A stretch of 64,000 bases of DNA, from positions 1,088,001 to 1,152,000 of the forward strand of contig CAWGAA010000001.1 of NCBI GenBank assembly GCA_963820525.1. Direction: 5' to 3'. Shown piece after piece: positions 5,846-23,164 of the stretch. The translations under genes and the position numbers were made by a program. The stretch is from an uncultured Spirochaetota bacterium. GTDB lineage: Bacteria > Spirochaetota > Spirochaetia > SZUA-6 > Fen-1364. The first letter of the stretch is position 1, and each line of letters starts with the position of its first letter. Under the pieces are notes generated by a model. It was not told where the DNA came from. It ran no database searches and saw only the letters and a list, made by a program, of their open reading frames with translations.

Positions 5846-6965
5846 TCCGATAGATGGCTCCGGCCGCATCATCTGAAACCAGCAGGGCGCCGTCCGGCAT
5901 GACCTGTACGTCAACCGGCCTGCCCCATGCGGTTCGGTTGACAAGCCAGCCCTCGGCAAAGGGCTGGTAGGAAATCGCCTTTCCGCCACTCAACTTCACC
6001 AGGCTGACACGATATCCAATGGGCGTGGTCCTGTTCCATGAGCCGTGCTCGGCGATGAAGATCTGGTTCCTGTACTCCGCGGGGAACATCCCGCCGGTAT
6101 AGAATCTCATCCCGAGCGCGGCCACGTGGGGCCCCAAGAGGATAGCGGGCGGAGTGAAAAGGGATAAATCCTTGTTCTGGCCCAGCTCGGGGTCATGGAT
6201 ATAGCCGGCATGGACATAGGGATAGCCGAAATGGAGCCCCGGCTGCGGGGCCTTGTTCAGCTCGTCAGGAGGCTGGTTGTCCCCCAGCCAGTCCCTGCCG
6301 TTGTCCGTAAACCACAACTCCCCGGTGGCTGGATCCCAGTCGAATCCGACGGTGTTTCGTATTCCCCGCGCAAAGATCTCCATGTCCGAGCCGTCGGGCT
6401 TCATCCGCGTGATGGAGGCGTATGGGTCGGGGCGCTCGCAGATGTTGCACGGCGCGCCGATTGGCACGTAGAGAAGCCCGTCGGGCCCGAAGCGGATGAA
6501 CTTCCAGCCGTGCGTTTCGTTGGTGGGCAGACGGTCCGTAACCACCACGGGCGCGGGAGGAGATCCGAGTGAGCTTTCTATCCTGTCGTAGCGGAGGATG
6601 CGGCTAACCTCTGCCACGTACAGAGACCCGTCCCGGAATGCGACTCCATTGGGCATGTGGAGGCCGCTGGCGATGGTGAGCACCTTTCGGGGTCCCGATG
6701 CCGGGCGCACGGCATTCGGGATGGCATAGACCTTCCCTATGTCACGGGTGCCGATAAAAAGGGTCCCGCTCTCGCCAAGAGCCAGGGAGCGCGCGCCGGG
6801 AACATTCGGCGCGAATACCTCGATCTTGAAGCCAGGCGGGAGGCGGATTTGGTCCAGGCGAGGATCTCCCGGGCGGAAGGCCGCCCCGCAGCCAAAGAGG
6901 AAAAGAGACAACAAGAGCATCGAAAAGATTCGCGGTTCTGCTCGCTCGAAGGACTTTCTCTTCAT
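5826..6965 (-). CDS. PQQ-dependent sugar/sorbosone dehydrogenase family beta-propeller lipoprotein
   Basis: LFLFGC lipobox-like signal; FGPDGLLYVPIGAPCN, GIRNTVGFDW, AEHGSWNR, GRPVDV..PDGALLVSDD motifs. Confidence 0.9.
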   Translation of the reverse strand: MKRKSFERAEPRIFSMLLLSLFLFGCGAAFRPGDPRLDQIRLPPGFKIEVFAPNVPGARSLALGESGTLFIGTRDIGKVYAIPNAVRPASGPRKVLTIASGLHMPNGVAFRDGSLYVAEVSRILRYDRIESSLGSPPAPVVVTDRLPTNETHGWKFIRFGPDGLLYVPIGAPCNICERPDPYASITRMKPDGSDMEIFARGIRNTVGFDWDPATGELWFTDNGRDWLGDNQPPDELNKAPQPGLHFGYPYVHAGYIHDPELGQNKDLSLFTPPAILLGPHVAALGMRFYTGGMFPAEYRNQIFIAEHGSWNRTTPIGYRVSLVKLSGGKAISYQPFAEGWLVNRTAWGRPVDVQVMPDGALLVSDDAAGAIYRISYSGG

Positions 6966-7124
6966 AAAGGAAATATACGTGTTGATCTGTGGGAGAGGAT
7001 ACAGAGGTGGGGCTCGCCGCCGCCGGCGCTGCAAAATGCGAGCACTCTCGACCCCGCGCGCGCATCCTGGCGCGCTGGACCCCTTGACATATTCGGCCCT
7101 TTTATGGTCTGGTAAATTCGACTT

Positions 7125-7197
7125 TCCCCTGTAGCTCAGCTGGTAGAGCGGGTGGCTGTTAACCACTAGGTCGGCGGTTCGAGTCCGTCCGGGGGAG
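7125..7197 (+). tRNA. tRNA-Asn (anticodon GTT at 7158-7160); CCA not encoded
   Basis: Cloverleaf: acceptor TCCCCTG/CGGGGGA, D-arm GCTC-AGCTGGTA-GAGC, anticodon arm GGTGG-CTGTTAA-CCACT, T-arm GGCGG-TTCGAGT-CCGTC. Confidence 0.97.
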
Positions 7198-7211
7198 CTG
7201 AGACCGAGTCG

Positions 7212-7251
7212 AACAGGCCCTTTTATGGTTAACACTATAGGAGGGCCTGTT
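7212..7251 (+). terminator. 18-bp hairpin downstream of the tRNA (part of the reusable 'R1' att arm)
   Basis: AACAGGCCCTTTTATGGT-TAAC-ACTATAGGAGGGCCTGTT with G-U pairs; T-rich tail. Confidence 0.7.
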
Positions 7252-7276
7252 TCGTTTCGGCGTAAGCCAGTCACCA

Positions 7277-7414
7277 TCAGCTTGTCACGTTCTTTCGGAG
7301 TTCATGCCAGCTATTTGCCTCGGTGATGATGCTCTCACTGAGACATTCTGCGACAAATCCGCCATCCTGCTCTTGAAGTACTTCGAAAACGAGTTTGCCA
7401 TTTAGAGTCGCCAT
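7277..7414 (-). pseudogene. hicB: Truncated HicB-family antitoxin (45 aa, below the ORF-track cutoff)
   Basis: MATLNGKLVFEVLQEQDGGFVAECLSESIITEANSWHELRKNVTS*; similar to 33783-33995. Confidence 0.65.
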
Positions 7415-7640
7415 AGGCTATGTTCTTACTAGACTACTGACTCGTTTGTCGACGAATATTCAAAAGGGGTCAGTTTCTCCTTGTTCTTTTGCTCATGGCG
7501 GCTGGCTCGAAGCTCGTCAATCTGGGCGGGCGACTCCTGTGTTCCGCCGCCGGTCTTGAAAACCTCAGCGCTTCGCGATAAAGATAGCGGGGAGATGAGA
7601 AATTCGGGCCAAGAGCCACGACGCACCTGAAAAGCAGAGC

Positions 7641-10118
7641 ATGACAGACAGACAAGAGTTGCAGAACGAGATCTCACGCGAGGATACCCGGCTCACCGTC
7701 CTCAAAGCCGAAGTGGAGAAAAGCAACACCCGCTTAAACGCGCTTCGTGAGCAGCTCGCCGCTGAGCCGCCCCTGCAGATCGCCGTCCCCAGGCTGCCGG
7801 CTCCAGAGACAACACCGACACCGATGACGAATGCGGCCAAGGTCGCCCTTTTCCGGTCGCTTTTCCGAGGCCGCGAAGACGTCTTCCCGCGACGCTGGGA
7901 GAACGCGAAGAATGGCAAATCCGGCTACTCACCGGCCTGCACTAACGAGTGGGAGTACGGATTGTGCGCGAAGAAGAAGGGGCTCAACGCCAGCCGGCGT
8001 GTTCACTGCTGTGAGTGCCCCAGCCAGGCATTCATCCCGGTTTCAGACGAGGAGATCGCCAAGCACCTGCGAGGGGACCAGATCATGGGGGTCTATCCCC
8101 TCCTGCCAGACGATACGTGCTGGTTCCTCGCAGCCGATTTCGACAAGAAAACGTGGCATGATGATGTCATGGCGTTTATCGAGACCTGCGACACACACGG
8201 TATCCCCGTGGCGATCGAGCGATCCCGCTCGGGCAACGGCGCGCACGCCTGGTTTTTCTTCGCATCGCCTGTGCCCGCGGCAACAGCACGCAAGCTCGGC
8301 TGCTTTCTCATCACCGAGACCATGGCACATCGGCACCAGCTCTCGATGGAATCGTACGATCGCCTATTCCCCAACCAGGACACCATGCCGAAGGGCGGAT
8401 TCGGCAATCTGATCGCACTCCCTTTCCAACGTCATTCGCGCGACGCGGGCAACACCGTGTTAGTCGATGCCGTCCGAAAGCCCTGGTCCGATCAGTGGAC
8501 CTTTCTCGCCGGCATCAAGCGCCTCGATGCGACCTTCATCCACGCCCTCGCCGAAGAGGCCGCGAGTCGCGGGCAGGTGATCGGCGTCCGTGTAAGCGAG
8601 ACACTCGACGATGACGATCTGACGCCCTGGACCCGACCGCCTTCCGGACGCCCGAGAAAGGTCGTGATCACCGCGCCCCTACCTCCTAAGGTGAAGGCGG
8701 TCCTGAGCCAACGCTTGTTTATCGAGAAGGCCGGTTTGCCGTCGCCCCTGCTCAACGAGCTCAAACGCCTTGCTGCATTCCAGAATCCAGAGTTCTACAG
8801 GAAGCAGAGCATGCGCCTCTCAACGGTGCTCACGCCCAGGGTGATCGCGTGTGCCGAGGACTCCCCCGAACACATCACTCTTCCGCGCGGCTGTTTGCCC
8901 GATGCCGAGGCTTTGCTTCGCCAGAATGGAGTCGCGATAGATGTCAAGGACAAGCGTGAAGGCGGGACGCGGTCGACTTCGCATTCCAGGGCACCCTCAC
9001 CCCACTCCAGGAGTTTGCCGTGAAGGCGCTCCTCGAACATGATACCGGCGTGTGTGTCGCGCCGCCGGGCGTCGGCAAGACCGTAGTCGGCGCGTACCTA
9101 ATAGCAGCCCGGAAGACTAGCACGCTCATCCTCGTCTATCGCAAGCCGCTCCTCGACCAGTGGATCGGCCAACTGTCAATGTTCCTCGGCATCGGGCCCA
9201 AGGACATCGGCCGGATCGGCGCGGGGAAATCTAAACCCAATGGCCGGCTCGATGTGGCCATGGTCCAGAGCCTCGCGCGAAAAGGGAAGGTCGCAGATCT
9301 CGTCGCAGGCTACGGCCAGGTAATCGGTAATCCAAGACGAGGTCCATCATGCACCGTGTGTGAGCTTCGAGCGTGTTCTGGCCGAGGTGAAGGCCAGGTA
9401 CCTCGTCGGCCTCACCGCGACTCCACAGCGCCGAGACGGGCTCCATCCCATTCTCCACATGCAGCTCGGTCCGATCCGGTTTACGGCAGACGCGAAGAGC
9501 CAGACAGCCCAACGGCCGTTCGACCACAAGCTCGTCGTCAGAGAGACGGGGTTCTCACCCACTGGCCACACGGCCGATGCTGGAATCCAGGAGCTCTACG
9601 CGGCACTCGCCGCCGACAAGAAGCGCAACGACCTCATCTTCGACGACGTGCTGTGTGCTCTCGAGGAGAAGCGCTCGCCCATCCTGCTCACGGAACGGCG
9701 GGAGCATTTGGAACACTTCGCCGACCGGCTTCAACGCTTCACTTGACATCTTATCGTGCTCCACGGCGGCATGAAAGACAAGGAGCGACGTGAGGTTCTC
9801 TTGAAGCTCGCCGGGATCCCCGACGGAGAGGAGAGGCTTATCATCGCGACCGGCAGGTACATCGGCGAAGGCTTCGACGACGCCCGGCTCGACACCCTGT
9901 TTCTCGCGTTGCCTGTCTCATGGAAGGGGACGCTCGTCCAGTACACCGGCCGGCTGCATCGCCTGCATGCGGGCAAGACCGAGGTTCGGATCTACGACTA
10001 CGTTGACAGTGCGGTCCGGATGTTGTTGAAGATGTTCGAGAAGCGGCTTCGCGGCTACAGGGCGATCGGATACGTCCGTGACGAGGAGGTGCTTCGAAAC
10101 CCCGAGGATAGGACATGA
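7641..10118 (+). pseudogene. AEP-primase-like (TOTE-conflict type) domain fused to a superfamily II DExH helicase; disrupted
   Basis: CWFLAADFD, IERSRSGNGAHAW, FGNLIALP; Walker A APPGVGKT; DEVHH; GLTATP.RRDG; GEGFD..RLDTL; frameshift ~8968, 7-bp duplication 9319-9332, in-frame TGA 9744-9746. Confidence 0.85.
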
Positions 10119-10126
10119 GGAAAATA

Positions 10127-10353
10127 ATGGCCGCAGATAAGAGAAAGCCGTCAAAGAAGAAGGGGCATAGCAGGACTCCGTCGAACGCGAGGCTCGAGCG
10201 GATCGATATGACGATGACGAGCATATTGTCGCGGTCTGTACGCACGGGAAGTCGCCCCAACGCGTCCCGATCCTTGACCCACCGCTGCCTGACCCACTTC
10301 CCGCTGGCGCGGAGTGGATCGACGCATTTCGCCGCTGGGCACGAGGGAGATAA
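10127..10353 (+). pseudogene. Internally deleted/frameshifted CcbP-like ('calcium-binding') small protein
   Basis: Alternative frame gives DDEHIVAVCTHGKSPQRVPILDPPLPDPLPAGAEWIDAFRRWARGR*; the N-terminal ARLE joins directly to RID. Confidence 0.55.
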
Positions 10354-10355
10354 TC

Positions 10356-11051
10356 ATGGCCGGTCGACAGATCGATCGAGACAAGCTTAGGGCGGCCGTC
10401 CGCAGGCTGGGCGATGAGTACGTGTTCTATATGTTGGACGAGGCTATCGACCTCTTGCCCCAGGCGAAGCTCCTGAAGCTGGCAAAGCACTATATCGACC
10501 CGTCGAAGCTTGAACCGGATGGCAAGGCCGAAGGGAGCCTGCTCTCCGACGTGAAGGTTTTCGAGAAGGCGAGCTTGGCCGGCGAGTACTACGAGAGCTT
10601 CAATGTCAACTCGAAGAACTGCGTGGAAAAATCCACCGGCACCAGGGCTTGGATCGCCGATTGTCACCGGCTACTCGACCGCTGCGTGGCCCAGGAAAGG
10701 AAGGGCGATCCCGCCGATGTGCGCCAGGCTTTCGAAATCATCTTCGGGGTATTGGACCGCATCGACGAGTGTCTCGACGACGTCATCTTTTTCGCCGACG
10801 AGGCGGGATCGTGGCAGGTCGGCGTCGACTGGAACAAGGTCCTGCCTTCCTGGTTCAGGGTTCTTTCGGCAACTGCCGAGCCCGCGGAGTACGCCGAAAG
10901 GATCACGGTTTTGCTGGAGCGCCACTACAACTACGGGAGCAGGAAGATGCTCGCCGTCGCACGAAGGACGGCGACACCACAGCAACGTAAGGCCCTTTCT
11001 TGCGTCGTGAATCGGAAACCAAGTCAGCGACTACGCTGCAGGAAATCATGA
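10356..11051 (+). CDS. Hypothetical protein (island operon gene)
   Basis: GGGAG RBS; SLAGEYYESFNVNSKN and IFFADEAGSWQVGVDW segments; coupled to the next gene. Confidence 0.7.
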   Translation: MAGRQIDRDKLRAAVRRLGDEYVFYMLDEAIDLLPQAKLLKLAKHYIDPSKLEPDGKAEGSLLSDVKVFEKASLAGEYYESFNVNSKNCVEKSTGTRAWIADCHRLLDRCVAQERKGDPADVRQAFEIIFGVLDRIDECLDDVIFFADEAGSWQVGVDWNKVLPSWFRVLSATAEPAEYAERITVLLERHYNYGSRKMLAVARRTATPQQRKALSCVVNRKPSQRLRCRKS

Positions 11052-12187
11052 GCGAATACCAGTACTACGAGTTCCAGGCGATCGACCGGCCGCTCAGCGC
11101 GAAGGAGATGAGCGTGCTGCGGTCATACTCGACGCGGGCCCGCATCACGCCGACGAGCTTCGTCAATCACTACGAGTGGGGCAGCTTCAAGGGCGACGAG
11201 GACGCGTGGATGGAAAAGTACTTCGACGCGTTCGTGTACCTCGCCAATTGGGGCACGCACGTGCTTAAGCTGCGATTGTCGTCGAGGCTGCTCGATCCGG
11301 CAATGGCCGGGAAGTACTGCGGCGGCAATAGCGCCTTCATCCACGAGAAAGCCGGCAAGGTCATCCTGACCTTCGTGTCCGAAGACGAGGAAGGCGGCGA
11401 GTGGGAAGAGGGTGAAGGCCAGCTCTCCTCGATGATCTCCGTGCGGACCGAGCTGGCGCGCGGTGACTTGCGGGCCCTGTACCTGGGCTGGCTGCTTCGG
11501 GCGCAAGCCCGGGAACTCGACGACGAAGATGTAGAGCCGCCCGTTCCGCCGGGCCTCGGTCAGCTCAGTGCATCGCTGGAAAGCCTGGCCTCGTTCCTGC
11601 GCATTGACGACGACCTGCTGCACGTGGCCGCCGAGACCAGCAGGCCGCTTGGAGACACGGATATAGATCGGAACGAGGTCCGAGCGTGGGTCGAGAAGCT
11701 GGCGACCAAGGAGAAGGACGCGCTAATCGCGAACCTCATAATGGATGCCGACCACACCCTGGTTACGGAGCTGCTACAGCGGTTCATCAAGGAGCGATCG
11801 ACTGAAACCACGACGGACACGGTCCGAAGACGGACCGTGAGGCAACTCTGCCGGGCAGCCGAGGCCTTCGCAACGAAGCGTAGTCGCATCGAGGCTCACA
11901 AGCGTGCCGAGGCGAAAGCCCGCCTCGAACGCAAAGCCGCCATCGCCAGGGAAAAACATCTCGACAGCCTCGTCGGCCGCGAGCAGAAGCTGTGGGCCAA
12001 GGTAGAAACGCTAATCGCCGCCACGCAGCCGAAAAGTTACGACCTGGCCTTGAAGATCCTTGTCGACCTGCGCGATCTGGACGTCCGCGGCAAGGGCGGC
12101 GACTTCGCTCTGCGCATGGAAACGCTCCGGCAGGCTCACGCTCGAAAGCCCAGCTTCATCGAGCGGCTCGGGAAGGCAGGGCTGTAA
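11048..12187 (+). CDS. Hypothetical protein of the MSEYQYYEF..IDRPL type
   Basis: ATGA overlap; 379 aa; GDLRALYLGWL and RKPSFIERL..AGL terminus. Confidence 0.75.
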   Translation: MSEYQYYEFQAIDRPLSAKEMSVLRSYSTRARITPTSFVNHYEWGSFKGDEDAWMEKYFDAFVYLANWGTHVLKLRLSSRLLDPAMAGKYCGGNSAFIHEKAGKVILTFVSEDEEGGEWEEGEGQLSSMISVRTELARGDLRALYLGWLLRAQARELDDEDVEPPVPPGLGQLSASLESLASFLRIDDDLLHVAAETSRPLGDTDIDRNEVRAWVEKLATKEKDALIANLIMDADHTLVTELLQRFIKERSTETTTDTVRRRTVRQLCRAAEAFATKRSRIEAHKRAEAKARLERKAAIAREKHLDSLVGREQKLWAKVETLIAATQPKSYDLALKILVDLRDLDVRGKGGDFALRMETLRQAHARKPSFIERLGKAGL

Positions 12188-12846
12188 TGGCGGCGAACAG
12201 GCACACCAGAAAACCTCTGGATCGGCGTAAGAAAACGACACCGAAATCGACAAAAGGTAGCCGGAAGAGCGTCTTGGGCAAAATGGCCCCATATGAGCTG
12301 GCCACCGTCCTGCAAGCCCTGCTGAAGAGACATCCGGAGCTCAAAGCCGAGGCGGAGGCGGCCGCCATCGGGATGGTGTCCGCCTTATCCGTCGAAGACA
12401 TCGCCGCGAAAGTGTTCGATGCAGTGACATCGCTCGGCCTCGAATCCCTTCACGGCCGCGCGGGCAATCAGCCGTGGGGCTACGTGGAGCCGGCAGACGC
12501 CGCCTGGGAATTGCTCGAAGAACCGGTCGAGGACATCATCGCCGACATGAAACGGTACATGGACCTCGGGCTGAAGACGGCGGCTGAAACGATCTGCTGT
12601 GGAATCGTGGCGGGTCTCCACAAGGCCGAGAGCGTCGGCTCAAACGGTCTGCTCGGTTGGGCGCCGGACTTTGCCGAAGAGGAAGCGTGTAATGCCGTCT
12701 TCGAGTTGATCCGCGCGTGCCCTGGCAAGGACCGCCGTGCCGTCCACGACAGGCTCGTCGAGGCTCTCGACGACCTCGTCCTGAACTGGCACAAAACGCT
12801 CTCTCAAACGGCAGTTCGCGCGTTACACAGCAGCTCGGTGTCGTGA
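12187..12846 (+). CDS. Hypothetical protein
   Basis: TAATG overlap; GRAGNQPWGYVEP.DAAWELLEE segment. Confidence 0.65.
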   Translation: MAANRHTRKPLDRRKKTTPKSTKGSRKSVLGKMAPYELATVLQALLKRHPELKAEAEAAAIGMVSALSVEDIAAKVFDAVTSLGLESLHGRAGNQPWGYVEPADAAWELLEEPVEDIIADMKRYMDLGLKTAAETICCGIVAGLHKAESVGSNGLLGWAPDFAEEEACNAVFELIRACPGKDRRAVHDRLVEALDDLVLNWHKTLSQTAVRALHSSSVS

Positions 12847-12885
12847 AAAACATACACACCCATGGTTAGAGTGCGGCCGGAATAC

Positions 12886-12978
12886 AGCTTCTTTTACTGT
12901 TTCCGCTTCCGTGATGAGTTGGGGATCAAGGGGGGAAGTCACGACGTATCCACATTCTTCGGCTTCTTCCAGCGTAAG
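12886..12978 (-). pseudogene. hicB: Internal fragment of a HicB antitoxin
   Basis: LTLEEAEECGYVVTSPLDPQLITEAETVKEA vs LTLQEAEEGGYVVTSPLDPQLITEADTVKEA in 33783-33995; no start codon. Confidence 0.85.
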
Positions 12979-12984
12979 TTTGAA

Positions 12985-13233
12985 TTACTTCTTGCTCGAC
13001 CTTGCTCCAGCGACCCGGTATTCGCGGTAGTCGAGACCGAGGGGGAAACGGCCGGCTTGGTTGTACCAGTTACCGGCAGAGCGTTTCAAGTCAGTAATCC
13101 CGGCGATGTTCATCTCTGGCAGGTGCGGGCCGTGGTAGAACTGCTCTCTTCGGGCGTTCCGCCGAATGAGGACAAATCGCGGCAGCGGCAAAGCGTCCTC
13201 GATCAGGCTTATGAATGAGGGCATTGATCGTTT
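12985..13233 (-). pseudogene. 'LIED' att-adjacent ORF remnant, copy 1 (putative HTH/recombinase-domain protein)
   Basis: FISLIEDALPLP...GPHLPEMNIA...GLDYREYRV aligns with 32456-32770. Confidence 0.6.
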
Positions 13234-13263
13234 GGTCGCTGGTTCGAGTCCGTCCGGGGGAGC
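13234..13263 (+). repeat. tRNA-Asn 3'-half direct repeat (att junction 2)
   Basis: GGTCGCTGGTTCGAGTCCGTCCGGGGGAGC, 28/30 identical to 7169-7198. Confidence 0.95.
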
Positions 13264-13275
13264 AAAGGAAAGGTC

Positions 13276-13315
13276 GAGCTGGCTCTCTCTGGCGTTCGCC
13301 ATGGAGAGCCGGCTC
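13276..13315 (+). terminator. R1-type hairpin
   Basis: GAGCTGGCTCTC..TGGCG-TT-CGCCA..GAGAGCCGGCTC. Confidence 0.65.
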
Positions 13316-13403
13316 TGACAATAGTCATTCCGCTTGGCGATTTCGGAAGTGCGGCGGGAGGAGCGGAAGTTTCAATAGGAGCGGCAGACCAATCTGGCAT
13401 GAG

Positions 13404-13682
13404 TCACTGGCGGCGCCATTCCATTCTTTCATACACATCCTTCCTGTGACAGACGCCAAGAATGAGAATGTCTTCACCTTCGATTTTCAGAACAATCCGA
13501 TAGTCCCCAACCCGCAGCTTTCTGTAGCCTTTCAGAGTTCTTCTCAATGGCTCCGAGTACTTGTCTGGAGATTCAAGTAGCCGCTGCTCAATGGCGACCT
13601 TGACTCTTTTCTGGATTGTCCGGCTGAGTTTTGGCAAGTCCTTTGCCTTGACGTCCGGGTGGTAGCTGAGGTGATAGGGCAC
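13404..13682 (-). CDS. relE: RelE/ParE-family toxin
   Basis: PLRRTLKGYRKLRVGDYRIV...HRKDVY signature. Confidence 0.9.
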   Translation of the reverse strand: MPYHLSYHPDVKAKDLPKLSRTIQKRVKVAIEQRLLESPDKYSEPLRRTLKGYRKLRVGDYRIVLKIEGEDILILGVCHRKDVYERMEWRRQ

Positions 13683-13684
13683 CT

Positions 13685-13912
13685 CTATCCCCAGACCTCA
13701 GCGTGCGTTAGGGTTTTCCGACGGGCTAGTGAATCAACACGCTCATCCGCAAAGCTCACGAGGGCAGAGTCCTCGAGGATTTCCAGAGCCTCCCGGACCA
13801 AGTCCCTGGTCACCATGGACAAGGACAATCCTCTCTCCTTCGCCATCCTCTCGATCAACGAATAGACCGGCCTTTCGAGGGCAACATTGATTCGGGGATT
13901 CTTGGTAGGCAT
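13685..13912 (-). CDS. RHH (CopG-like) antitoxin
   Basis: MPTKNPRINVAL..YSLIERMA..RGLSLSMVTRDLVREALE; directly upstream of the toxin; GGAGG RBS. Confidence 0.85.
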   Translation of the reverse strand: MPTKNPRINVALERPVYSLIERMAKERGLSLSMVTRDLVREALEILEDSALVSFADERVDSLARRKTLTHAEVWG

Positions 13913-13930
13913 TGCTTTCCTCCAAGGAAT

Positions 13931-13959
13931 AGTGTATCACTTATGAGACACTGTGGCAA
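13931..13959 (-). promoter_or_regulatory. Sigma70-type promoter with overlapping operator for the RelE/RHH operon
   Basis: TTGCCA-17 nt-TACACT, conserved at 33465-33493; AGTGT..ACACT dyad. Confidence 0.65.
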
Positions 13960-14257
13960 CTGCCCATGAGGGCGCTTGACCGCCGAGTAGGGCAATCGCG
14001 GCTGCCAAGGGGATCTGCAACGCCGAAAACGCCACTCCGAGAACATGGTCGCTGCGAGGTTGATCCACGGCCGCTTTTACTTTGAGCCCGTCGTTATCAG
14101 GAATGCCTTCACACGGCGCACAAGCCGCAAGCGCAAGGTTGTAGAGGAGCGACCTTGAGCGACATGAATCCGTCCTTTGCCGATTTCGGTGCTTGCCGTA
14201 TGAGAAATGGACGGTATCCTCGATCATTTGCAGCAAATGACCGCGTTACCAACCCGT
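13960..14257 (-). pseudogene. 'LIED' ORF remnant, copy 2 (strongly decayed)
   Basis: QMIEDTVHF and GIPDNDG; TCCTCGATCA DNA motif at a similar distance from the repeat. Confidence 0.4.
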
Positions 14258-14285
14258 TCGGCGGTTTGAGTCCGTCCGGGGGAGC
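14258..14285 (+). repeat. tRNA-Asn 3'-half direct repeat (att junction 3)
   Basis: TCGGCGGTTTGAGTCCGTCCGGGGGAGC, 27/28 to 7171-7198, followed by the R1-like GAGTCGAACTGG. Confidence 0.95.
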
Positions 14286-14385
14286 GAAGATTGAGTCGAA
14301 CTGGTTTCCCCTGGCTAACACGTCGCAGCTTGCAGGGGGCGTCCCCAAGGCGCCCAGGAGGATCCGGCTGAAGAACTGAGAGAGG

Positions 14386-14637
14386 CTACCCCGTGCTCTT
14401 CAGCTCCTCTCTGAGGATGCGGCGAAGGGTTTCCACGTCCAGCGGACGCGCTGACCTTCCCAGATACTCACGGAGGGCATCGTTTATCATGGTCTGGTAT
14501 CCCCGGCCGGCGGCATCCGCACGGTTGCGGAATTCCTCCAGAATCTCATCATCAAGGTAGATGCTGATCCTGCTCTTCCCTTTCTGAGGGATGACCGCCC
14601 CCCGCTTGGCCTTGCTGAAGTCATATTCCTTCCTCAT
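14386..14637 (-). CDS. brnA: BrnA antitoxin family protein
   Basis: MRKEYDFSKAKRG...RISIYLDDEILEEFR...GYQTMINDALR. Confidence 0.9.
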   Translation of the reverse strand: MRKEYDFSKAKRGAVIPQKGKSRISIYLDDEILEEFRNRADAAGRGYQTMINDALREYLGRSARPLDVETLRRILREELKSTG

Positions 14638-14893
14638 AGTTTTTCCTCTCACTCCTCGTCGCGGTCCTGGCCGAAATCAGCCGGATTGTCTGACCGCGAT
14701 AGGAGTAGACAATGACAACAATCCGGCCTGATGAATCCGTCCCCATGGACACGAACCGTTGCTCGCCGCGAGCCTGGGAATCCTCCCTTGTGAGGGCAAA
14801 GGGATCAAAGAGCACCGCCTCGGCGTCGGAGAAGCGAATCCCATGCTTCCTTTGATTCGACGCAGCTTTCCGGGGATCCCACACAACTTGCAT
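14621..14893 (-). CDS. brnT: BrnT family toxin
   Basis: WDPRKAASNQRKHGIRFSDA...GEQRF...IRLISARTATRSER. Confidence 0.9.
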   Translation of the reverse strand: MQVVWDPRKAASNQRKHGIRFSDAEAVLFDPFALTREDSQARGEQRFVSMGTDSSGRIVVIVYSYRGQTIRLISARTATRSERKNYEEGI

Positions 14894-15027
14894 ACTCAGA
14901 GCATATACATACATTATACATATATCAAGTGCCTGACGGCAATCGGAATACGGAGGGACGCAGGCAAAGTCGTATGGGGCCGCGAAAGCGAAATCATCGC
15001 TGAGCGGGTAGACGCTGGAGCTTAGAC

Positions 15028-15168
15028 TCAAGGATTTCCGAATGCGATGGCTGCGAGTGAAAGGCTGTACAGATGCGGCCTTGGAAAGCACAAGCTTTGT
15101 ATTTGCATGCTCCGGCTCCCTTTGTGCATGAAGCATAGCAAGTCCTCGATCAGCGGGATGGCCGACCG
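15028..15168 (-). pseudogene. 'LIED' ORF remnant, copy 3
   Basis: AIPLIEDLL...RPHLYSLSLA, in frame with APPDGLEP across the repeat. Confidence 0.5.
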
Positions 15169-15210
15169 TGTTAACGTCCAGGTCGCTGGTTCGAGTCCGT
15201 CCGGGGGAGC
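15169..15210 (+). repeat. tRNA-Asn 3'-half direct repeat from the anticodon loop (att junction 4)
   Basis: TGTTAACGTCCAGGTCGCTGGTTCGAGTCCGTCCGGGGGAGC, 37/42 to 7157-7198. Confidence 0.95.
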
Positions 15211-15220
15211 AGAGTTGGAC

Positions 15221-15257
15221 AGGCAGTCGGCACAGAGTCGACTGCCTTTTCTGTTTC
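15221..15257 (+). terminator. Rho-independent terminator; its antisense encodes a recombinase C-terminal tail ('R2' arm)
   Basis: AGGCAGTCGGC-ACAGA-GTCGACTGCCT then TTTCTGTTTC; antisense reads AQETEKAVDSVPTACPTLLPRTD. Confidence 0.75.
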
Positions 15258-15274
15258 TTGGGCGCAGCGGCAGG

Positions 15275-15745
15275 TCAGAGGGTCCGGCGCCAATAGAAGA
15301 TCGCCAGCTGGGTCCTACCACGCAGGTTCAGCTTCTCCAGCACCGTGGAGATGATGTTGCGGGCGCTGCCCTCGCTGATGAGGAGAGCGTCGGAGATCTC
15401 GCGGTTGGAGCAACCCCTGCGCCACCAACTCCGCCACCTCGTTCTCACGCGGCGTGAGGCCGGGTAGGGGCTGGGGATACGCGTCCGTGAGACGGTCCAG
15501 CATGCGCGCGTCCAGCACGGCGGTCTCCGTCATGAGGGCGCGAAGCCGCTACGCCATGCCGGCGGTGGGGGTGGATTTCAGCAGGTAGCCGGCCGCGCCG
15601 GCCTGGAGGGCCTCGCGGATACTCTGATCGTCCTCAAAGGTGGTGAGGATCATCACCCGGACCGTCGGCCAACGGCTTCGGATTTTTCGCGTCGCCTCGA
15701 TGCCGTCCATGCCCGGCATGCGCAGGTCCATGAGCACGGCGGGCG
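15275..15745 (-). pseudogene. NarL/LuxR response regulator, 5'-truncated with an internal stop and frameshift
   Basis: VLMDLRMPGMDGIEAT..ILTTFEDD..GAAGYLLK; LTPRENEVAELVAQG/SNREIS. Confidence 0.85.
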
Positions 15746-15897
15746 CCCACTTCCATACTGACCGCGTTTTTTTTGTCTAAAAAAATCCTTAAAAAGCTCT
15801 TGACAAGGATGATATTTAGTAGCATTATACACTTAATTGCTTTTTGCACTTATAGAATTATTACTTATAGATGTGTAGTGAAGGATGGAGAGAGACG

Positions 15898-16299
15898 ATG
15901 TACCAGTCAGGTGATTGCGGAAGCATGAAAGGGCATGGTGAAGGGTCTTGTAGCTGCGAATCCAGGCATGAGAAGTTCATCGATCCCTGCCTGCTTCTCC
16001 TCATTGCGCAAGATCCATCCCATGGCTACGACCTCATCGAGCGGCTTAAAAAATACGGCTTCGATGGGGTGGATCCCACCAGAGTGTATCGGCGCCTGCG
16101 CCATCTGGAGGATTGCGGATTCCTCGAATCCGCGTGGTCGACGGACACTCCCGGGCCCGCGCGTAGAGCGTACAGGATCACAAAGGAGGGCCTGGATTTC
16201 CTTCAGACATGGCCTCCCGCGGTCCAGAGATCGATCGAGTCGTACAAGTCTTTTATCGACGATTTGACCGCTCTGAAGAATAAGGGGCAAAAAGGGTGA
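15898..16299 (+). CDS. PadR-family transcriptional regulator
   Basis: LLLLIAQDPSHGYDLIERL..VYRRLRHLE..GPARRAYRITKEG. Confidence 0.9.
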   Translation: MYQSGDCGSMKGHGEGSCSCESRHEKFIDPCLLLLIAQDPSHGYDLIERLKKYGFDGVDPTRVYRRLRHLEDCGFLESAWSTDTPGPARRAYRITKEGLDFLQTWPPAVQRSIESYKSFIDDLTALKNKGQKG

Positions 16300-17246
16300 A
16301 AGCCATGCAAGACAACGACGCTGCCGTTGTTGCCGTTGAAGCGGATGGGCTGGTGAAACGCTTTGAGAAGAACATCGCCGTGGACCGCGTCAGCTTCCAG
16401 GTGAGAAGAGGGGAGATTTTCGGCTTTCTGGGGCCGAACGGTGCGGGCAAAACCACGACGGTGAGGATACTCACGGGTGTTCTCAAGGCAGACGGGGGGA
16501 GCGCGTTGATTTTCGGCGCCAGGGCCGGCAGTCTTGAAGCCAAACGATTCGCGGGCGTGGTGCCCGAAATGGCGAACGCTTATGGAGACCTGTCAGGGTG
16601 GAGCAATCTGATGTTGATGGCGGAACTCTCGGATGTTCCCACAAAAACGGCGAGAGAGAGGGCGACGAAGCTCCTTCGAGAACTTGGGCTTTTCGAGAGA
16701 AAAGGCGACCTCGTGAAGGGATACTCCAAGGGAATGAAACAGCGCCTGATCCTGGGCATGGCGCTCATCGGCGATCCGAAGATCCTGTTCCTGGACGAGC
16801 CGACCTCGGGATTGGACGTGCAGAGCGCTCGTCTCATCAATGACCTCCTGCGCGGCTTGAACGCGGACGGTACGACCATTTTTCTCACAACCCATGACAT
16901 GGACGAGGCAAACCGCCTCTGCAATCGTGTGGCCATCATAGATCGCGGGAGGATTGTCGCTACGGACGCGCCGGAGAAGCTCAAGAAAGCGACGAGCGGC
17001 ATGCACTCGATAGAGATCAGCTTCGATGGCGCAGCGAGCCTAGAATCGTTTGAGGGTATATCAGGAGTGAGGGAAGTGAAGAGAATCGGAGACAAGCTCA
17101 AGCTTTATACTACGGACCCGGGGGAGCTTGTGGTCGAGATGGTCTCCTACTCCCGCGCGAACGGGCTTAAAATCGTATCGCTCAATACGCCGATTCCCTC
17201 GCTCGAAGACGCCTTTCTGGCGCTCACACACAAAGGAGCATCGTGA
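16296..17246 (+). CDS. ABC transporter ATP-binding protein (DrrA/ABC-2 type)
   Basis: GPNGAGKTT, YSKGMKQR, LFLDEPT, TTH motifs. Confidence 0.95.
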   Translation: MKAMQDNDAAVVAVEADGLVKRFEKNIAVDRVSFQVRRGEIFGFLGPNGAGKTTTVRILTGVLKADGGSALIFGARAGSLEAKRFAGVVPEMANAYGDLSGWSNLMLMAELSDVPTKTARERATKLLRELGLFERKGDLVKGYSKGMKQRLILGMALIGDPKILFLDEPTSGLDVQSARLINDLLRGLNADGTTIFLTTHDMDEANRLCNRVAIIDRGRIVATDAPEKLKKATSGMHSIEISFDGAASLESFEGISGVREVKRIGDKLKLYTTDPGELVVEMVSYSRANGLKIVSLNTPIPSLEDAFLALTHKGAS

Positions 17247-17470
17247 TGCCGGCAATTTCAACAGCTCTGGGGCAGTCCAGGCGCGTATGGACCATCGCCA
17301 AGAAAGACATCCGCATCTACTATTCCAAGGGCCCGGTGGTGATATTCGGCATCATCTTCCCCGTTTTCCTTTTTCTTTCGTTCATGATCGGCAGGAGGCT
17401 GACCCTCGATTCCACGATGCCCGGGCTTATGGGAATGATCCTTTTCTTTTCCGCCACTGCAATATCCAGT
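17243..17470 (+). pseudogene. ABC-2 permease N-terminal fragment, followed by unrelated fragments
   Basis: WTIAKKDIRIYY..IIFPVFLFLSF...PGLMGMILFF; similarity ends abruptly near 17470. Confidence 0.7.
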
Positions 17471-17795
17471 TCCGCTCGTCATCGGATTGGTCCTACCTTA
17501 CTTTCTGTTCTCCCTGACGGTTCGGGAGTGGCTGGTTTTCATCTCGATCGGGACCCCGATCGGATTCCTTTCCCATATCCTCTTTTTTTTCCTGTTAGTA
17601 TACGGGATGTACATGCCGTTCATCCGCATACCGTCGATCTGGTTATGAAACCACGCAACGGCCTTCCTCGCCGCGTACGCGAATCCCCTGCTCGACTTTT
17701 AATCGAACGGTATCGTGAAAACGACGTGAGTCCTTATTCGGATGACTACTCAACGCAGATCTGCGTGCCGGTGGATAGAGTACGCTGGTTCCGCC

Positions 17796-20700
17796 TCAGC
17801 GTCTCCGCAGCACGATCCCGTCAAAGGGCTCCAAGACCACCTCGCGAGCGGGACTCCCATCATTGTAGCGCGCTGCCGACTCGACGTAGACCGCGTCCGC
17901 GTACAGAAGCCCTTGACCTTGGGAGTTCCTTATCCGCAGTATGGGTCTGTCCCGCGTTTTGAGGGCGACCTGCGCAACATCCCGCCACGCGTCAGGGTTC
18001 CGCGTTTGATCTATTTTCGCGCTGGCGATGATCTTCCCCAGCGCCACGATCTCGTAGACGGCGGCCTTTGTCCTGGACGACCGGTTTGGCGCGTCGGGGA
18101 GCCATACGCGGATGGTATAGGTCCCATCCTCCGGAATCATCAGGTCGTATTCCGCCGCCGCGTCCCTTTGGACCGCTTCCCTGCAAGTCGATCCCCAGTC
18201 ATGGTAGAAAGGCGGCTCCACTTTCCATTCGTGCGTATCACGATGGACTGTCGACCAGCCGCCGGAAAACTTGACGCCCGGTCCGTCGTCGTCTATCACG
18301 TATTGCCGCTTCGGCGCCTGGGCGCCTACTATGCGCGAGAAGCCATCGCCCAGCGGGATAGTCTTCGGCTCGGAGGTCCCGTTGAGAAGGACGATGCCTT
18401 TCTCGAAATCCCTTCGGTAGACGTCCGGCGGCAGTTCGTCCATGAACACGTCGTCTATATGGACAACGCCCGTAGCATCCGCGAGAAAGAACTGCAGCCC
18501 CGCGTCCGAACGGCCGCCCGTCGCGGTGAATCCTACCGTATATTCCTTCCACTCGCGGCCCATCTCGAACCTCTTCCACAATCCCAGCCCCTCCCAGTCG
18601 CCCGCCCGCCGCTGCAGGGAGACGACTAGCGGCCGCGGGGTGTCCGCCTTGGCGGAGAATCGCACGACGTAAGAGACGCCCTTGCGTACCTTCACTCCAT
18701 CCCTGTAGAAATTGACGAAGTGGGGCTGGGCGGAAGGGGGCAGCGCGCGGACTTCGATACGGGCCGATCGCTGGCCGGAGGCGGCATCCGCGTCGTAGGA
18801 AAAATACGCCAACACGCCCTGATTCGGCTGAACGAAAAAGGACCACGAGGAATTTCCGGGGTTCTCGAAATCCCCGTCGGAGAAGAGGGGACGGGGGATG
18901 GGCTCCGGAGCGCCCGCCGTCCGAGCATACTCCGCGGGTCCGAGTGGAGCGCCGAGCCGGTAATCGAATTCGTCGTACGTCCATTCCTCGCAATAAAGCA
19001 CGTCGCTGAAATGGCGTTCGAAGAGCCCGTTCCCCATGAGGGCAAAGGCAAGGCCGAAACGCATGGACGGATACCAAGTCCGCGCGAAGTCAAGGACGCC
19101 GGGAGGAATGCGGCGTTCCGCCTCCTCGAAGGAGGAGTATACGCCGTACCCGTACCCCAGCTCGTTCGGCGCGCCCACGTCGATCACGCTGACGTTCGGT
19201 CCCATGCCGCCTTTCTCCCAGCCATGGTAGCGGTCCCAGATATCGCTGAACCTGATCCGGCCTTCAATGGCGTCGATGCAGATAAAAGCCAGGTTGTCGC
19301 CGTCGAAGTATTCACCGAGCTCATCGGCTCCTTTCGAAAGATGTCCCGTAGCGATCGCCCCGGGCATGGTTTCCCGCCAGAGGCGCACCATCTCCAGCAT
19401 CCCCTTCCTCCATGCTGCGTCCAAAACCACGGGGTCGTCCTCATTCCCGTCGCCGTCCGCGTCGATACGGATAGGATTGCCGTATGCGTCCTTCTTGTTA
19501 TAGGAAACATCCAGTATGAAGCTGTCAAAGAAGACGCCGTCGAAGAGCAGATCGGCGGCGGATATGGTCTCACGGATGCGCCGCGCATTGAACTCCACCA
19601 CTTCGGGTTTCGTGAGGTTCAGGCGGTGTGATCCGGGCCACAGTGTGATCCGCTCGCCGGAAACATCCCGGAGGTAATACTCATCCGGGATGGAAGGCTC
19701 GCCGTCGAAGTACTCCAAGGGCTGGAGCGTCGCCAGCAGGATGACGCCAGGGTTGACGCTTCTGATTCTACGCAGGCTTTGCGGATCGGCCCACCCAAGA
19801 ACGGCCAACTGGAGCCTGGCCGTATAGTCCCGGTATTCCGGATCCGCGAGCCGCCAGCTCCATAGATTCGCGATGCGGGGATAGTCCGCTTTCATGGCGG
19901 GCACGCTCCGATAGCTGAGCATGAGCGTGAAATCGGGGGCCGCCGAGGAACGCAGGTAGACCCGATTCATCTCCATGGGATCGGGAGAGAGGTTCCTGAT
20001 CTCGGTCTCGTGGACCGTCCTGCCGGAGCCCGAATCGAAGGGGTGCATCGAGCCAAAGGGCAGCTCCTCGTTCAAGGACCAGCGGACCTCGGCCGGCACG
20101 GGGCTCGAGACCCTCAGCCGCAACGACGTTGAGCCCGCGGGAAGGAGGGTCGAATCGGGGCGCGCATCCGAGAGGGGCGGGCCCAGGTAGATGAAGGATC
20201 CGCGGGCGGCGCCCGCGGTGATCGCGACCTCGTCCCCGGCCGAAAGGCCCGTCAGGGGGAAGATTACCTCGGCGGAAAAGGGCGGGTCGCGCCGAGCAGC
20301 TTCCGCAGCGACGCGGCTGGGGTCCAAAGTCTCGCGCGTGATGCGCACCGAGTCCATGGCGTACATGGGATTCCCGAGCGCAAAGCGCGTCGAACCCGCA
20401 GGCGCGACGTAGCGGCCTTCATTCGTGTCGCCCGCCGCCCGCCCGTCGACGTACATGCGCATATAGTTCTGCGACTCCGAGAAGACGAAGACGACGTGGT
20501 GCCAGCTGCCGGCCTTCCAGGAACGCATCGAACCTTCATTGGAATATGCGCTGAGATAAGCTCCTCCGATGGTCGCTTGAGCGCAGACGATTCCCGTAGA
20601 CGCTTGACGCACATAAAGCGAGTCGCCGTTCGACGCCGCATAAGCGAAGAACGGGAGGTCGGCGGCGTACCCCGCGGACGATCCGTCTCTTAAAGGGGAG

Positions 20701-21134
20701 ATCCAGAATTCGACGGTCCCCTGGTGGGGGTCATACAAGCCTTGTGTCGCGAAAGGGACGCCCCCGGACGGCGCAATAAAGCCCTGGCCGAAGCGGCCGG
20801 GGACGAATACGGCCCCGGCGGCAGAAATGGGCTTCTCACCCCGCGCCGTCACGAGGTCGCCGTCGGCCGCAAGATGGAAGGTCTCCGCGAGGGAGCCTTC
20901 CCTAGAGGGCACGTTATTCACTGTCCAGCGGTATGAGCTTCCCGGTCGAGCGGCAATGAGGTCAGCGGCTAAAAAACGATAGTCCGAGCTCGGCCGAAGC
21001 CGAATCGATGGCTCTTGGGGAAATGCCCTAATGGAGGCGGCGGCGAGGCAAACGATTAGGAGGGCACAGCGATGATACTCGCTTGGCGGGAACCTGATCC
21101 AGATTCGGGGAGTCATTAATCCAATCATTTTCAA
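17796..21134 (-). CDS. Large secreted modular glycoside-hydrolase-like protein (LamG, putative GH barrel, CBM4/9-like, golvesin-like domains)
   Basis: Signal-like N-terminus; GTVEFWI..WHHVVFVF..MYVDG (LamG); FDGVFFD, MRFGLAFALMGNG, VYRRDFEKGIVLLN; DGDFE..SW.F..YVVRFSAKAD (CBM). Confidence 0.7.
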   Translation of the reverse strand: MKMIGLMTPRIWIRFPPSEYHRCALLIVCLAAASIRAFPQEPSIRLRPSSDYRFLAADLIAARPGSSYRWTVNNVPSREGSLAETFHLAADGDLVTARGEKPISAAGAVFVPGRFGQGFIAPSGGVPFATQGLYDPHQGTVEFWISPLRDGSSAGYAADLPFFAYAASNGDSLYVRQASTGIVCAQATIGGAYLSAYSNEGSMRSWKAGSWHHVVFVFSESQNYMRMYVDGRAAGDTNEGRYVAPAGSTRFALGNPMYAMDSVRITRETLDPSRVAAEAARRDPPFSAEVIFPLTGLSAGDEVAITAGAARGSFIYLGPPLSDARPDSTLLPAGSTSLRLRVSSPVPAEVRWSLNEELPFGSMHPFDSGSGRTVHETEIRNLSPDPMEMNRVYLRSSAAPDFTLMLSYRSVPAMKADYPRIANLWSWRLADPEYRDYTARLQLAVLGWADPQSLRRIRSVNPGVILLATLQPLEYFDGEPSIPDEYYLRDVSGERITLWPGSHRLNLTKPEVVEFNARRIRETISAADLLFDGVFFDSFILDVSYNKKDAYGNPIRIDADGDGNEDDPVVLDAAWRKGMLEMVRLWRETMPGAIATGHLSKGADELGEYFDGDNLAFICIDAIEGRIRFSDIWDRYHGWEKGGMGPNVSVIDVGAPNELGYGYGVYSSFEEAERRIPPGVLDFARTWYPSMRFGLAFALMGNGLFERHFSDVLYCEEWTYDEFDYRLGAPLGPAEYARTAGAPEPIPRPLFSDGDFENPGNSSWSFFVQPNQGVLAYFSYDADAASGQRSARIEVRALPPSAQPHFVNFYRDGVKVRKGVSYVVRFSAKADTPRPLVVSLQRRAGDWEGLGLWKRFEMGREWKEYTVGFTATGGRSDAGLQFFLADATGVVHIDDVFMDELPPDVYRRDFEKGIVLLNGTSEPKTIPLGDGFSRIVGAQAPKRQYVIDDDGPGVKFSGGWSTVHRDTHEWKVEPPFYHDWGSTCREAVQRDAAAEYDLMIPEDGTYTIRVWLPDAPNRSSRTKAAVYEIVALGKIIASAKIDQTRNPDAWRDVAQVALKTRDRPILRIRNSQGQGLLYADAVYVESAARYNDGSPAREVVLEPFDGIVLRRR

Positions 21135-21512
21135 TGCTCCTATTGATACGATTCGATTTCCCCATGCACAGCCTAATCCGCCCTTACTTCCAGTGCAAGG
21201 GCGGGATGGACGCTAATGGGGGTGAGATTCCCAGGCACGAAACGAGATGTCTATAATCAGCCCGATTTTCAGCGTGCCGCTGGAATAGAGTGATAGGCAA
21301 AACGATAATTCCCCCCTTTTTCTAATATCGCCAGAGAATACATTCCACAGCCTCATCCTACACTGAAACGGCGGAGTGCGTAAGAGACAGAAGTCATTGC
21401 GTCCCTTTCAGTTCACTCCCCCCGCCCTCGGGAAGCGATGAAAGCCCGCATTTCACTCAGGTGACGGCCTTCCGCATGAGACACAAGACAGTTCTCTCCC
21501 TCTGCCCGTTTC

Positions 21513-21773
21513 ATGTTTAGGTTGAGTCTAAAGGAAGTGCATGAATTGAATGAACAAAACGTCCCTCTTAAACAAGGGCGAAACATTAAACACTTGCCGA
21601 GAGCTTTTACGATCTTTGGCATCCTCATGCTCACGGGCACGTTGCGAAGCGAGAAAGTTGCGGACATGAACCGGCGAATCTTGAAAGTGTTCTGGGACAT
21701 CATGTTCAATTCAATCCCTTCGCCTCAATTTGTGACCTTGAATAAGGTCTTTCGAGAGCTGTTTCCAGTGTAG
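21513..21773 (+). pseudogene. ORF6N-domain (phage antirepressor-like) remnant
   Basis: FMFRLS..E...KHLPRAFT.FGILML.G.LRSE.VADMN..ILKVF pattern; lower-GC patch. Confidence 0.5.
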
Positions 21774-23139: not shown

Positions 23140-23164
23140 CAGGGACCTCGCGAGGAGCTGGCCC

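Follow-up and report, generated by a model that had tools for sequence, protein, structure and literature searches.

A tandem array of small toxin-antitoxin units at the tRNA-Asn gene of uncultured spirochaetes and a candidate serine recombinase for its assembly

Repeats, junctions and cargo at the tRNA-Asn gene

In the genome of a free-living, uncultured member of the Spirochaetota (assembly GCA_963820525.1, 5.05 Mb, labelled G000), the gene for tRNA-Asn is followed by direct repeats of its own 3' end, and several of the units between these repeats carry a single small toxin-antitoxin (TA) operon. We analysed a stretch of 64,000 nt that contains this locus, referred to below as the window (W; contig CAWGAA010000001.1, positions 1,088,001-1,152,000). 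Coordinates without a label are those of the window, and G and L denote genomes and loci or contigs, respectively. An earlier note on this DNA had described small units with one TA operon between tRNA-end repeats, which was confirmed by a repeat search and Pfam.

Using ARAGORN, we located tRNA-Asn(GTT) at 7125-7198 on the plus strand (Rfam tRNA, 66 bits). It is the sole tRNA gene in the window and the sole tRNA-Asn gene in G000, and we propose it as the primary attachment site (attB). Its 3'-terminal 23 nt, GGTTCGAGTCCGTCCGGGGGAGC, recurs with at most one mismatch in further copies ending at 13263, 14285, 15210 and 32809. These give, with the gene itself, 5 matches to this 23-nt core in the window, and 100 shuffles gave none. 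Shorter remnants of the tRNA end were found at 24197, 28202 and 31626 (end positions, plus strand) and, inverted, at 28013 on the minus strand. An independent Logan contig covers 13689-14882 with one difference, which supports the assembly across the repeat ending at 14285 (junction 3).

The unit between junctions 2 and 3 (13263-14285, 1022 bp) contains a RelE/ParE-RHH pair as its only cargo recognized by Pfam. The toxin gene (RelE/ParE family, 92 aa, 13404-13682, minus strand) matches PF05016 with an E-value of 1.7e-10 and TIGR02385 below its cut-off (1e-5), and the RHH (RelB-like) antitoxin gene (75 aa, 13685-13912, minus strand) matches PF01402 (3.6e-4) and RelB models below cut-off (~2e-4). 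In the following unit (14285-15210, 925 bp), the Pfam-recognized cargo is only BrnT-BrnA: the antitoxin BrnA (88 aa, 14386-14652, PF14384, E-value 9e-12) and the toxin BrnT (~90 aa, 14621-14893, PF04365, E-value 4e-27), both on the minus strand. The listed BrnT open reading frame (ORF) extends to 15136, and the domain begins only at residue 86. A third small unit (31626-32809, 1183 bp) carries HicB (31873-32073) and then HicA (32070-32285) on the plus strand. Past its right junction (junction 10, 32809) lie, on the minus strand, a second ParE/RelE gene (32938-33216) with its partner (33219-33485) and then HicA (33577-33786) with its partner (33783-33995), all assigned by Pfam. The region of this second RelE/ParE pair is 73% identical over 869 nt to that of the unit between junctions 2 and 3. 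Within the operons, genes are closely spaced: the RelE/ParE and RHH genes are 2 nt apart (13682/13685), BrnA and BrnT overlap by 32 nt, and HicB and HicA overlap by 4 nt. By family and gene arrangement, the RelE/ParE-RHH, BrnT-BrnA and HicA-HicB pairs are predicted type II TA systems. Thus, the Pfam results agree with the note's placement of each pair: RelE/RHH at junctions 2-3, BrnT/BrnA at 3-4, HicB/HicA at 9-10, and RelE/RHH followed by HicA/HicB after junction 10.

The note had also suggested that several operons have their own promoters and mostly face the tRNA. Promoter-like sites were indeed found upstream of both minus-strand operons in the first two small units, at 13931-13959 for RelE/RHH (9/12 matches, with a TG extension) and at 14913-14942 for BrnTA (TTGCCG-18-TATAAT, 10/12). 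The scan gave 3 sites versus 1.0 +/- 0.9 in shuffles, and this is support at the consensus level only. As for orientation, four of the five operons in the window point to the tRNA; the tendency did not hold over all sources (8/14 small units).

The first unit after the tRNA (7198-13263, ~6 kb) is different in content. It contains a TOTE-type AEP primase gene (7641-9023) and a helicase gene split into two frames (9020-9793 and 9756-10118), all on the plus strand, with homologues in L004, L005 and L148. It also contains two HicB remnants on the minus strand, which the note had suspected near 7277 and 12886 and which are real at the DNA level. One is a remnant of a gene in the HicB position (7285-7395; blastn, 90% over 111 nt to 6692-6802 of contig L001 from a relative, G008), and the other lies beside the arm of junction 2 (12887-12978; 79% to L001 9161-9252). 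ORFs at 10115-13218 and those spanning junctions had no Pfam match and no similarity to the recombinase elements described below. Across 15210-31626 there is ordinary-looking cargo together with an IS110 element, fragments of transposases and degenerate junctions. No TA pair is present in the three large segments of the window that have such junctions. Genome-wide, 5 of 14 HicA, ParE and BrnT matches fall at this locus, which is only a rough measure of enrichment because these families were picked for occurring here.

We aligned junctions from the window, relatives and metagenome contigs, and approximately 38 of them share the same anatomy. Each consists of a ~75-nt pseudo-tRNA with a hairpin after the core. 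The motif GTCCTCGATCA stands in place of the 5' acceptor/D region and is followed by a variable stretch, by GTTAAC (the anticodon loop) and by a 3' part, in which the 3' strand of the anticodon stem is unlike that of the tRNA and the final ~30 nt are common to it. Conservation of this left arm reaches ~100 nt upstream of the pseudo-tRNA, that is ~170 nt from the core. An Rfam search of the window at E-values up to 1 scored only the true tRNA and none of the junction copies, indicating that the latter are not tRNA-like in structure. All four junctions with a full core are on the plus strand. Junction 2 (13102-13263) has the extended arm, the motif at 13195-13205, the pseudo-tRNA, the core at 13241-13263 and a hybrid T-stem (GCTGG/CCGTC). 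Junction 3 (14116-14285) has the extended arm, the motif variant TCCTCGATCA at 14217-14226 and the core at 14263-14285, and junction 4 (15040-15210) has the arm, the motif at 15143-15152, the core at 15188-15210 and again a hybrid T-stem. Junction 10 (32648-32872) comprises arm, motif, core (32787-32809) and a type-A tail.

The tails after the core are of two main types, type A starting with GAGTCGAAC and type B starting with GGACAGGCAG and ending in a T run. Strong hairpins were predicted in five of six window tails (z -4.1 to -8.1), the exception being the tail after 14285. The type-A hairpin directly after the tRNA (7199-7262, plus strand; -36.6 kcal/mol, z -8.1) is 90% identical to the tail after 32809, and the hairpin after junction 2 (13264-13325, plus strand) folds with -36.6 kcal/mol (z -7.4). 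The type-B tail at 15211-15262 (plus strand) combines a terminator-like hairpin with a vestige of a recombinase 3' end (weak tblastn match to residues 490-519 of the large serine recombinase discussed below).

In four junctions (W 13263, W 15210, L005 7882 and L003 11214), the T-stem has the 5' strand GCTGG and the 3' strand CCGTC, and the T-stem of the host tRNA in G000 and G014 is GGCGG/CCGTC. Since such hybrid stems join a foreign 5' strand to a host 3' strand, they point indirectly to a crossover in or next to the T-loop.

Recurrence of the units in relatives and metagenomes

To see whether similar arrays occur elsewhere, we scanned 41 genomes (G000 and 40 relatives) with the 23-mer. Matches were present in 19 genomes and clustered copies in G000, G008, G014 and G034. 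Direct repeats of the 3' end that delimit tandem units downstream of an intact tRNA were observed in G008, G014, G034 and G004 as well as in the window. The longest array is on the 14-kb contig L001 of G008, with seven junctions and six complete units of 701, 3008, 695, 889, 797 and 840 bp. These hold HicAB, Fur and KatG, HicAB, BrnTA, DUF433 with DUF5615 (PIN-like), and a weak HicA-like pair. Five of the six are thus TA-only, and a HigB/HTH pair follows the array. In G014 the tRNA is followed by a DUF433/DUF5615 unit (805 bp), a junction and HicAB, and in G034, which belongs to another family, by a 3.8-kb unit, a junction and BrnTA.

A metagenome scan for the motif plus T-arm yielded 39 loci, most of which have such junctions. 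Nearly all of these junctions are flanked by TA genes, from the families DUF433/DUF5615, BrnTA, HicAB, ParE, Gp49/HTH, MNT/HepT, UPF0175, AbiE and HipA. A looser pattern scan of contigs returned at least 121 stretches; among the matches listed, most came from unrelated taxa and few were useful spirochaete records. Redundant contigs (L154, L155, L157, L171, L181 and L182; L151 and L167; one of L043/L150) were left out of the unit counts below.

The note had proposed a survey of related tRNA-Asn loci for TA enrichment, and TA-only small units do recur. All 14 complete units of up to 1.4 kb (3 from the window, 5 from G008, 1 from G014 and 5 from metagenome contigs) have a TA-family Pfam match, one of them weak (E-value 7.5e-4), as do all four complete units of 1.4-2.5 kb. 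Among units above 3 kb with clear junctions, only one of four (L018) has such a match, and those without are the Fur-KatG unit of G008, the G034 unit and the first unit of the window.

Comparison between genomes suggests that the small units are discrete. The DUF433/DUF5615 units of G008 and G014 are homologous all the way from one junction to the next (867 nt, 78%), and a HicAB unit (HicAB-a) aligns between the same genomes over 541 nt (80%). The order of these two units is inverted, and they are adjacent in G014 and separated by three units in G008. The neighbours of the BrnTA unit differ between G000 and G008, and MNT/HepT units, which form part of the array L179, are also found next to solitary cores in two different chromosomal contexts. 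Cassette DNA of G000 and G008 is 80-82% identical, compared with 70% and ~75% for the two housekeeping genes used as reference.

G000 itself has two solitary copies of the tRNA-Asn 3' end, distant from any tRNA-Asn gene. Upstream of one (C1:2132859-2132881, L005 7860-7882) lie an MNT/HepT and a UPF0175/DUF3368 pair. The other (C2:200692-200714, L006) adjoins a DDE_3 transposase gene and lies ~4 kb from an N-terminal recombinase fragment.

A candidate recombinase and readings of the array

A domain search of the window found neither a Resolvase nor a Phage_integrase domain, and the nearest Phage_integrase match lies ~3.4 kb beyond the window end, away from the array. On the metagenome contig L162, a 528-aa large serine recombinase (LSR) with Resolvase, Recombinase and Zn-ribbon domains is encoded antisense, its 3' end running into a junction core and a type-B hairpin. 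Using this protein in tblastn, we detected a broken C-terminal remnant in the window (24160-24540, minus strand; 56% over 127 aa, residues 395-517, E-value 6e-30). The remnant has three internal stops and overlaps the core remnant ending at 24197 together with a type-B hairpin (z -4.9). A second LSR fragment in G000 is located on contig 2, ~4 kb from the solitary tRNA-end copy there.

Intact LSR homologues with 88-92% identity were found in G016, G014, G007 and G010 among 92 genomes of the order. The core lies at the 3' end of the LSR gene in L162, L183, L185, L188 and L189, which is every locus where that end is present and uninterrupted; in L184 an IS110 element follows the gene, and L187 stops before the gene's end region. 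In G016, KatG is followed by arm, core and type-B tail, with the LSR gene next in antisense. In G014 the LSR belongs to a 27.9-kb island at a non-tRNA site, flanked by 219-nt direct repeats that end in the core. The best NCBIfam match of the LSR is CcrB, far below the cut-off. The final residues of the LSR remain encoded in type-B tails elsewhere, which suggests that units with such tails are derivatives that lost the recombinase gene. Thus, the serine-recombinase platform that the note had imagined is supported by the remnant and by the intact genes of relatives that abut the core; an intact gene was found neither in the window nor in G000.

As a more speculative possibility, the overlap of the attachment site with the 3' end of the LSR gene would let integration alter the C-terminus of the enzyme, which could serve as a switch. 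In the conserved arm (e.g., 14116-14285 and 15040-15210), one antisense frame runs for 55-60 codons without interruption and ends at a comparable position in many junctions, and in G014 the intact recombinase ORF extends across the core in this frame. A second antisense frame is also often open, and the third-position excess is weak (0.45 vs 0.38-0.39). The coding signal is weak; a C-terminal extension of the recombinase may be, or may in the past have been, encoded in the arm. As to the rest of the G014 island (L183 and L190, ~C6:318225-346375), its flanking repeats are 91% identical, and its cargo includes a fusion of an SNF2-type helicase with an S24 peptidase domain, while several of its large ORFs gave no Pfam match.

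A reasonable hypothesis is that the locus is an LSR-driven tandem accretion array at a single tRNA-Asn gene. Elements with a pseudo-tRNA-Asn attachment site would have inserted serially at tRNA-Asn, each time by a crossover in or near the T-loop that restored the tRNA and shifted older units downstream. From the position of its intact gene, antisense and directly beside the core, the CcrB-like LSR is the likely builder of the junctions. The TA units of ~0.7-1.3 kb would then be minimal derivatives without recombinase that keep the attachment site and an addiction module, a minimal unit consisting of a tail hairpin, one self-promoted type II TA operon, a left arm of ~120-170 nt and the core. 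Such small units might be kept and reshuffled between genomes as discrete units. We propose that TA pairs dominate because addiction or selection shields them from the deletions that strip other cargo. In our reading, therefore, the TA units are deletion derivatives with both attachment arms that were later handled as units, resembling the cis-mobilizable elements at ssrA in Dehalococcoides. Since nothing but recombinase fragments is left in G000, the array there is probably frozen.

Taken as a whole, this mechanism seems to us on balance just probable. Conditional within it are the role of the LSR as maker of the junctions, the movement of small units in trans and the reason given for the predominance of TA pairs. 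Our confidence is much higher for the descriptive parts, namely the repeats, the gene content, the recurrence, the adjacency of the recombinase in relatives, the hybrid junctions and the differing unit order. A stronger version, in which the ~1-kb TA units are true mobile cassettes, i.e., non-autonomous circles captured in trans by the CcrB-like LSR at the tRNA-Asn T-loop, is possible and rather doubtful. If it were true, free-living spirochaetes would own an independently evolved, TA-dominated cassette system that works like an integron with a different enzyme and site.

Several observations weigh against LSR-driven accretion. G000 has only fragments and no intact member of the L162 LSR family, and G008, with the longest array, yields only an LSR match of 27% identity. 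Type-A tails were not seen adjoining a recombinase gene. At the far end of the G014 island, the one complete LSR island examined, there are sugar-metabolism genes and no TA pair. Known serine integrase sites are roughly 50 bp, and the conserved arm of ~170 nt exceeds this, so that another factor or enzyme may be at work. Low-depth Logan contigs from four runs, compared with 6500-17500, mostly end at repeats and have no joint that skips a whole unit; they gave no sign of an excision product, of a circle or of presence/absence variation at the cassette level. The identity comparison between cassettes and host genes has a reference set of only two housekeeping genes. In addition, a tyrosine integrase is aimed at tRNA-Asn in four relatives, and the LSR 3' vestiges in type-B tails, the truncated HicB genes and the degenerate junctions of the window are signs of decay.

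Such signs would be expected if the units were simply the stumps of large autonomous islands, in which a TA pair and the attachment repeat survived and the small units never moved. The fragmented helicase and the LSR stump of the window fit this account of pure decay, as do the lack of an intact recombinase in G000 and the larger units L018, L149 and L005, in which a TA pair sits at the arm end. The earlier note had held that the units would be only deletion remnants if their homologues elsewhere were large islands. The LSR vestiges do make units with type-B tails deletion derivatives; nevertheless, the homologues of the BrnTA, DUF433/DUF5615 and HicAB units elsewhere are small and TA-only. 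Decay alone is also difficult to reconcile with a junction-to-junction homologous small unit at other positions and in inverted order in G008 and G014, with the compactness of all 14 small units, with spacers in the window units that match only the arms of other cassettes and no other genes, and with cassettes that are more alike between genera than the two housekeeping genes. We consider it rather unlikely as a full explanation.

It is also conceivable that no dedicated enzyme was involved and that the junction repeats of 100-250 nt served as portable homology for homologous recombination, e.g., after DNA uptake. The junctions are long and 70-90% alike, arrays are present in genomes without a cognate recombinase, and hybrid junctions would arise in the same way. 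However, homologous recombination would not account for a recombinase gene whose 3' end consistently lies on the core, for a foreign-to-host switch that falls within the T-arm in all four hybrids, or for the solitary cores and one LSR island at non-tRNA sites, and we regard it as improbable. Very improbable is an array built by the tyrosine integrase of tRNA-Asn (~403 aa), whose gene directly follows this tRNA in G008, G007 and G012 and is split in G024, and to which, since tyrosine integrases use arm-type sites, a long conserved arm would be suited: its elements have a different post-tRNA tail and no GTCCTCGATCA-type junction within 12-20 kb, junctions resembling its products (L002 3371 and L004 8977) are without the motif and keep the true tRNA sequence from the anticodon loop onward, and a homologue is missing from G000 (best match 28% identical). 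This integrase marks a real tRNA-Asn element in relatives, for which no link to the motif-bearing junctions was found.

Known systems and neighbouring features

Full-text literature searches, with subscription-only papers outside their coverage, returned no description of such an array. In chromosomal (super)integrons, small self-promoted TA cassettes between recombination sites are stacked at one primary site. The window resembles them in having an array of small single-TA-operon units beside one primary site, and this likeness is architectural only. There is no IntI at the array, the boundaries are direct pseudo-tRNA repeats rather than the imperfect palindromes of attC, no common Pc promoter logic was seen, and the recombinase gene has no fixed place next to the array. 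Integron cassettes are mostly promoterless, and the RelE/RHH and BrnTA operons have promoter-like sites of their own. The note's idea of convergence with superintegrons, therefore, holds only as an analogy of layout. SCC/SCCmec elements (CcrAB/CcrC) also combine a CcrB-like LSR with tandem cassettes at one chromosomal site and recombinase-less pseudo-cassettes; unlike the units here, they target the end of a protein-coding gene (orfX/rlmH), are tens of kb long and use two recombinase subunits.

The closest described system appears to be the ssrA islands of Dehalococcoides (McMurdie et al. 2011, PMC3146451), which are attributed to a CcrB-like LSR (DsiB) that inserts at the T-loop. As described there, these islands are arranged in tandem downstream of a single-copy tRNA-like gene and are bounded by direct repeats of its 3' end, with a conserved non-matching motif just upstream of the repeat, and T-loop insertion was deduced, to which the hybrid T-stems here point indirectly. 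The LSR gene lies on the reverse strand beside the repeat, an arrangement that we observed in relatives and of which the window keeps a remnant. An integration module is absent from many ssrA islands, which are interpreted as cis-mobilizable elements (PMC3146451), and we liken the small units to these. There are also differences from that description. The target is tRNA-Asn rather than tmRNA, the units measure 0.7-1.3 kb and hold one TA operon each, as against multi-kb dehalogenase islands, and the left arm is a full-length pseudo-tRNA plus ~100 more conserved nt. The six-gene integration module of the ssrA islands was not seen here. The CcrB match of our LSR is sub-threshold, and its likeness to DsiB is one of description.

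Two further systems share some of these features. The tycheposons of Prochlorococcus (Hackl et al., 10.1101/2020.12.28.424599) are tRNA-targeted tandem elements separated by partial tRNAs, with remnants deeper in the island, some LSRs and primase/helicase modules. In contrast to the elements here, they are described as having mostly tyrosine recombinases, and their cargo as nutrient-uptake or satellite genes; the main text of that account contains the word "toxin" 0 times and no TA-only mini units. Among the pdif modules of Acinetobacter (Mindlin et al. 2019, PMC6449649) is one of 768 bp that carries a TA pair ("add") between Xer sites. The pdif modules are similarly described as small discrete units with sites for a trans-acting recombinase, shuffled between replicons, but they are plasmid-borne with inversely oriented 28-bp XerC/D sites, whereas the units here are chromosomal with direct tRNA-derived repeats.

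In our preferred reading, the locus represents a variant of tandem accretion, driven by a recombinase at a tRNA gene, with an integron-like degree of enrichment in TA modules. Its new features are the group of bacteria that hosts it, a pseudo-tRNA site derived from tRNA-Asn that has a long arm and, most of all, the preponderance of ~1-kb single-operon TA units. TA modules between recombination sites occur in Vibrio superintegrons and on Acinetobacter pdif plasmids, and the array, if our reading is correct, would be a third, mechanistically unrelated case, with a serine recombinase at a chromosomal tRNA T-loop as the platform. It would support the rule that any site-specific stacking platform fills with addiction modules. 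The attachment site of ~250 nt and the recombinase of ~530 aa would also form a compact candidate pair for a new tRNA-targeting serine integrase. In addition, the array accounts for assembly breaks at the tRNA-Asn loci of these wetland spirochaetes.

A tycheposon combines a site-specific integrase with a replication module and cargo in one element integrated at a tRNA gene, and no complete element of this kind was recovered here. The first unit of the window has primase and helicase without a recombinase, and in the metagenome contig L148 (1-783) a helicase is followed by the N-terminal part of a serine recombinase beside a junction. A second copy of the primase-helicase module is present in G000 (C1:2128151-2130374, L005 3151-5374; 67% DNA identity), and the module also occurs near tRNA-Asn in G034 (L004 18573-20000). 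A different primase-helicase, a D5_N protein of 919 aa, is encoded by a tyrosine-integrase element of G008 (L010 180-5239, C117), whose post-tRNA tail is unlike the cassette tails. The window segment 34363-35928 (1.57 kb), which includes a methyltransferase gene (34495-35661, minus strand), is 98.5% identical to C1:2125970-2127544, a stretch that adjoins the second primase-helicase copy. It could stem from a recent duplication or be a mobile segment that joins the two loci.

Junction cores of three genomes (G000, G004 and G007) have an IS110-family transposase gene next to or within them. In the window, the gene (30363-31511, minus strand, Pfam) adjoins the truncated junction 31560-31626, whose core is trimmed to GGGGGAGC, with the inverted partial copy at 28013; the other positions are L018 283-1335 and L184 2283-2831. 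This suggests that the IS110 element targets the attachment site, and elements of the IS1111 type target integron attC sites in a similar way.

Upstream of the tRNA, a single ORF of 606 aa (3822-5642) contains a FliM domain (residues 11-201) and the middle and C-terminal domains of FliG (386-594). In four relatives, the FliM and FliG halves match sites that are kilobases apart or on separate contigs.

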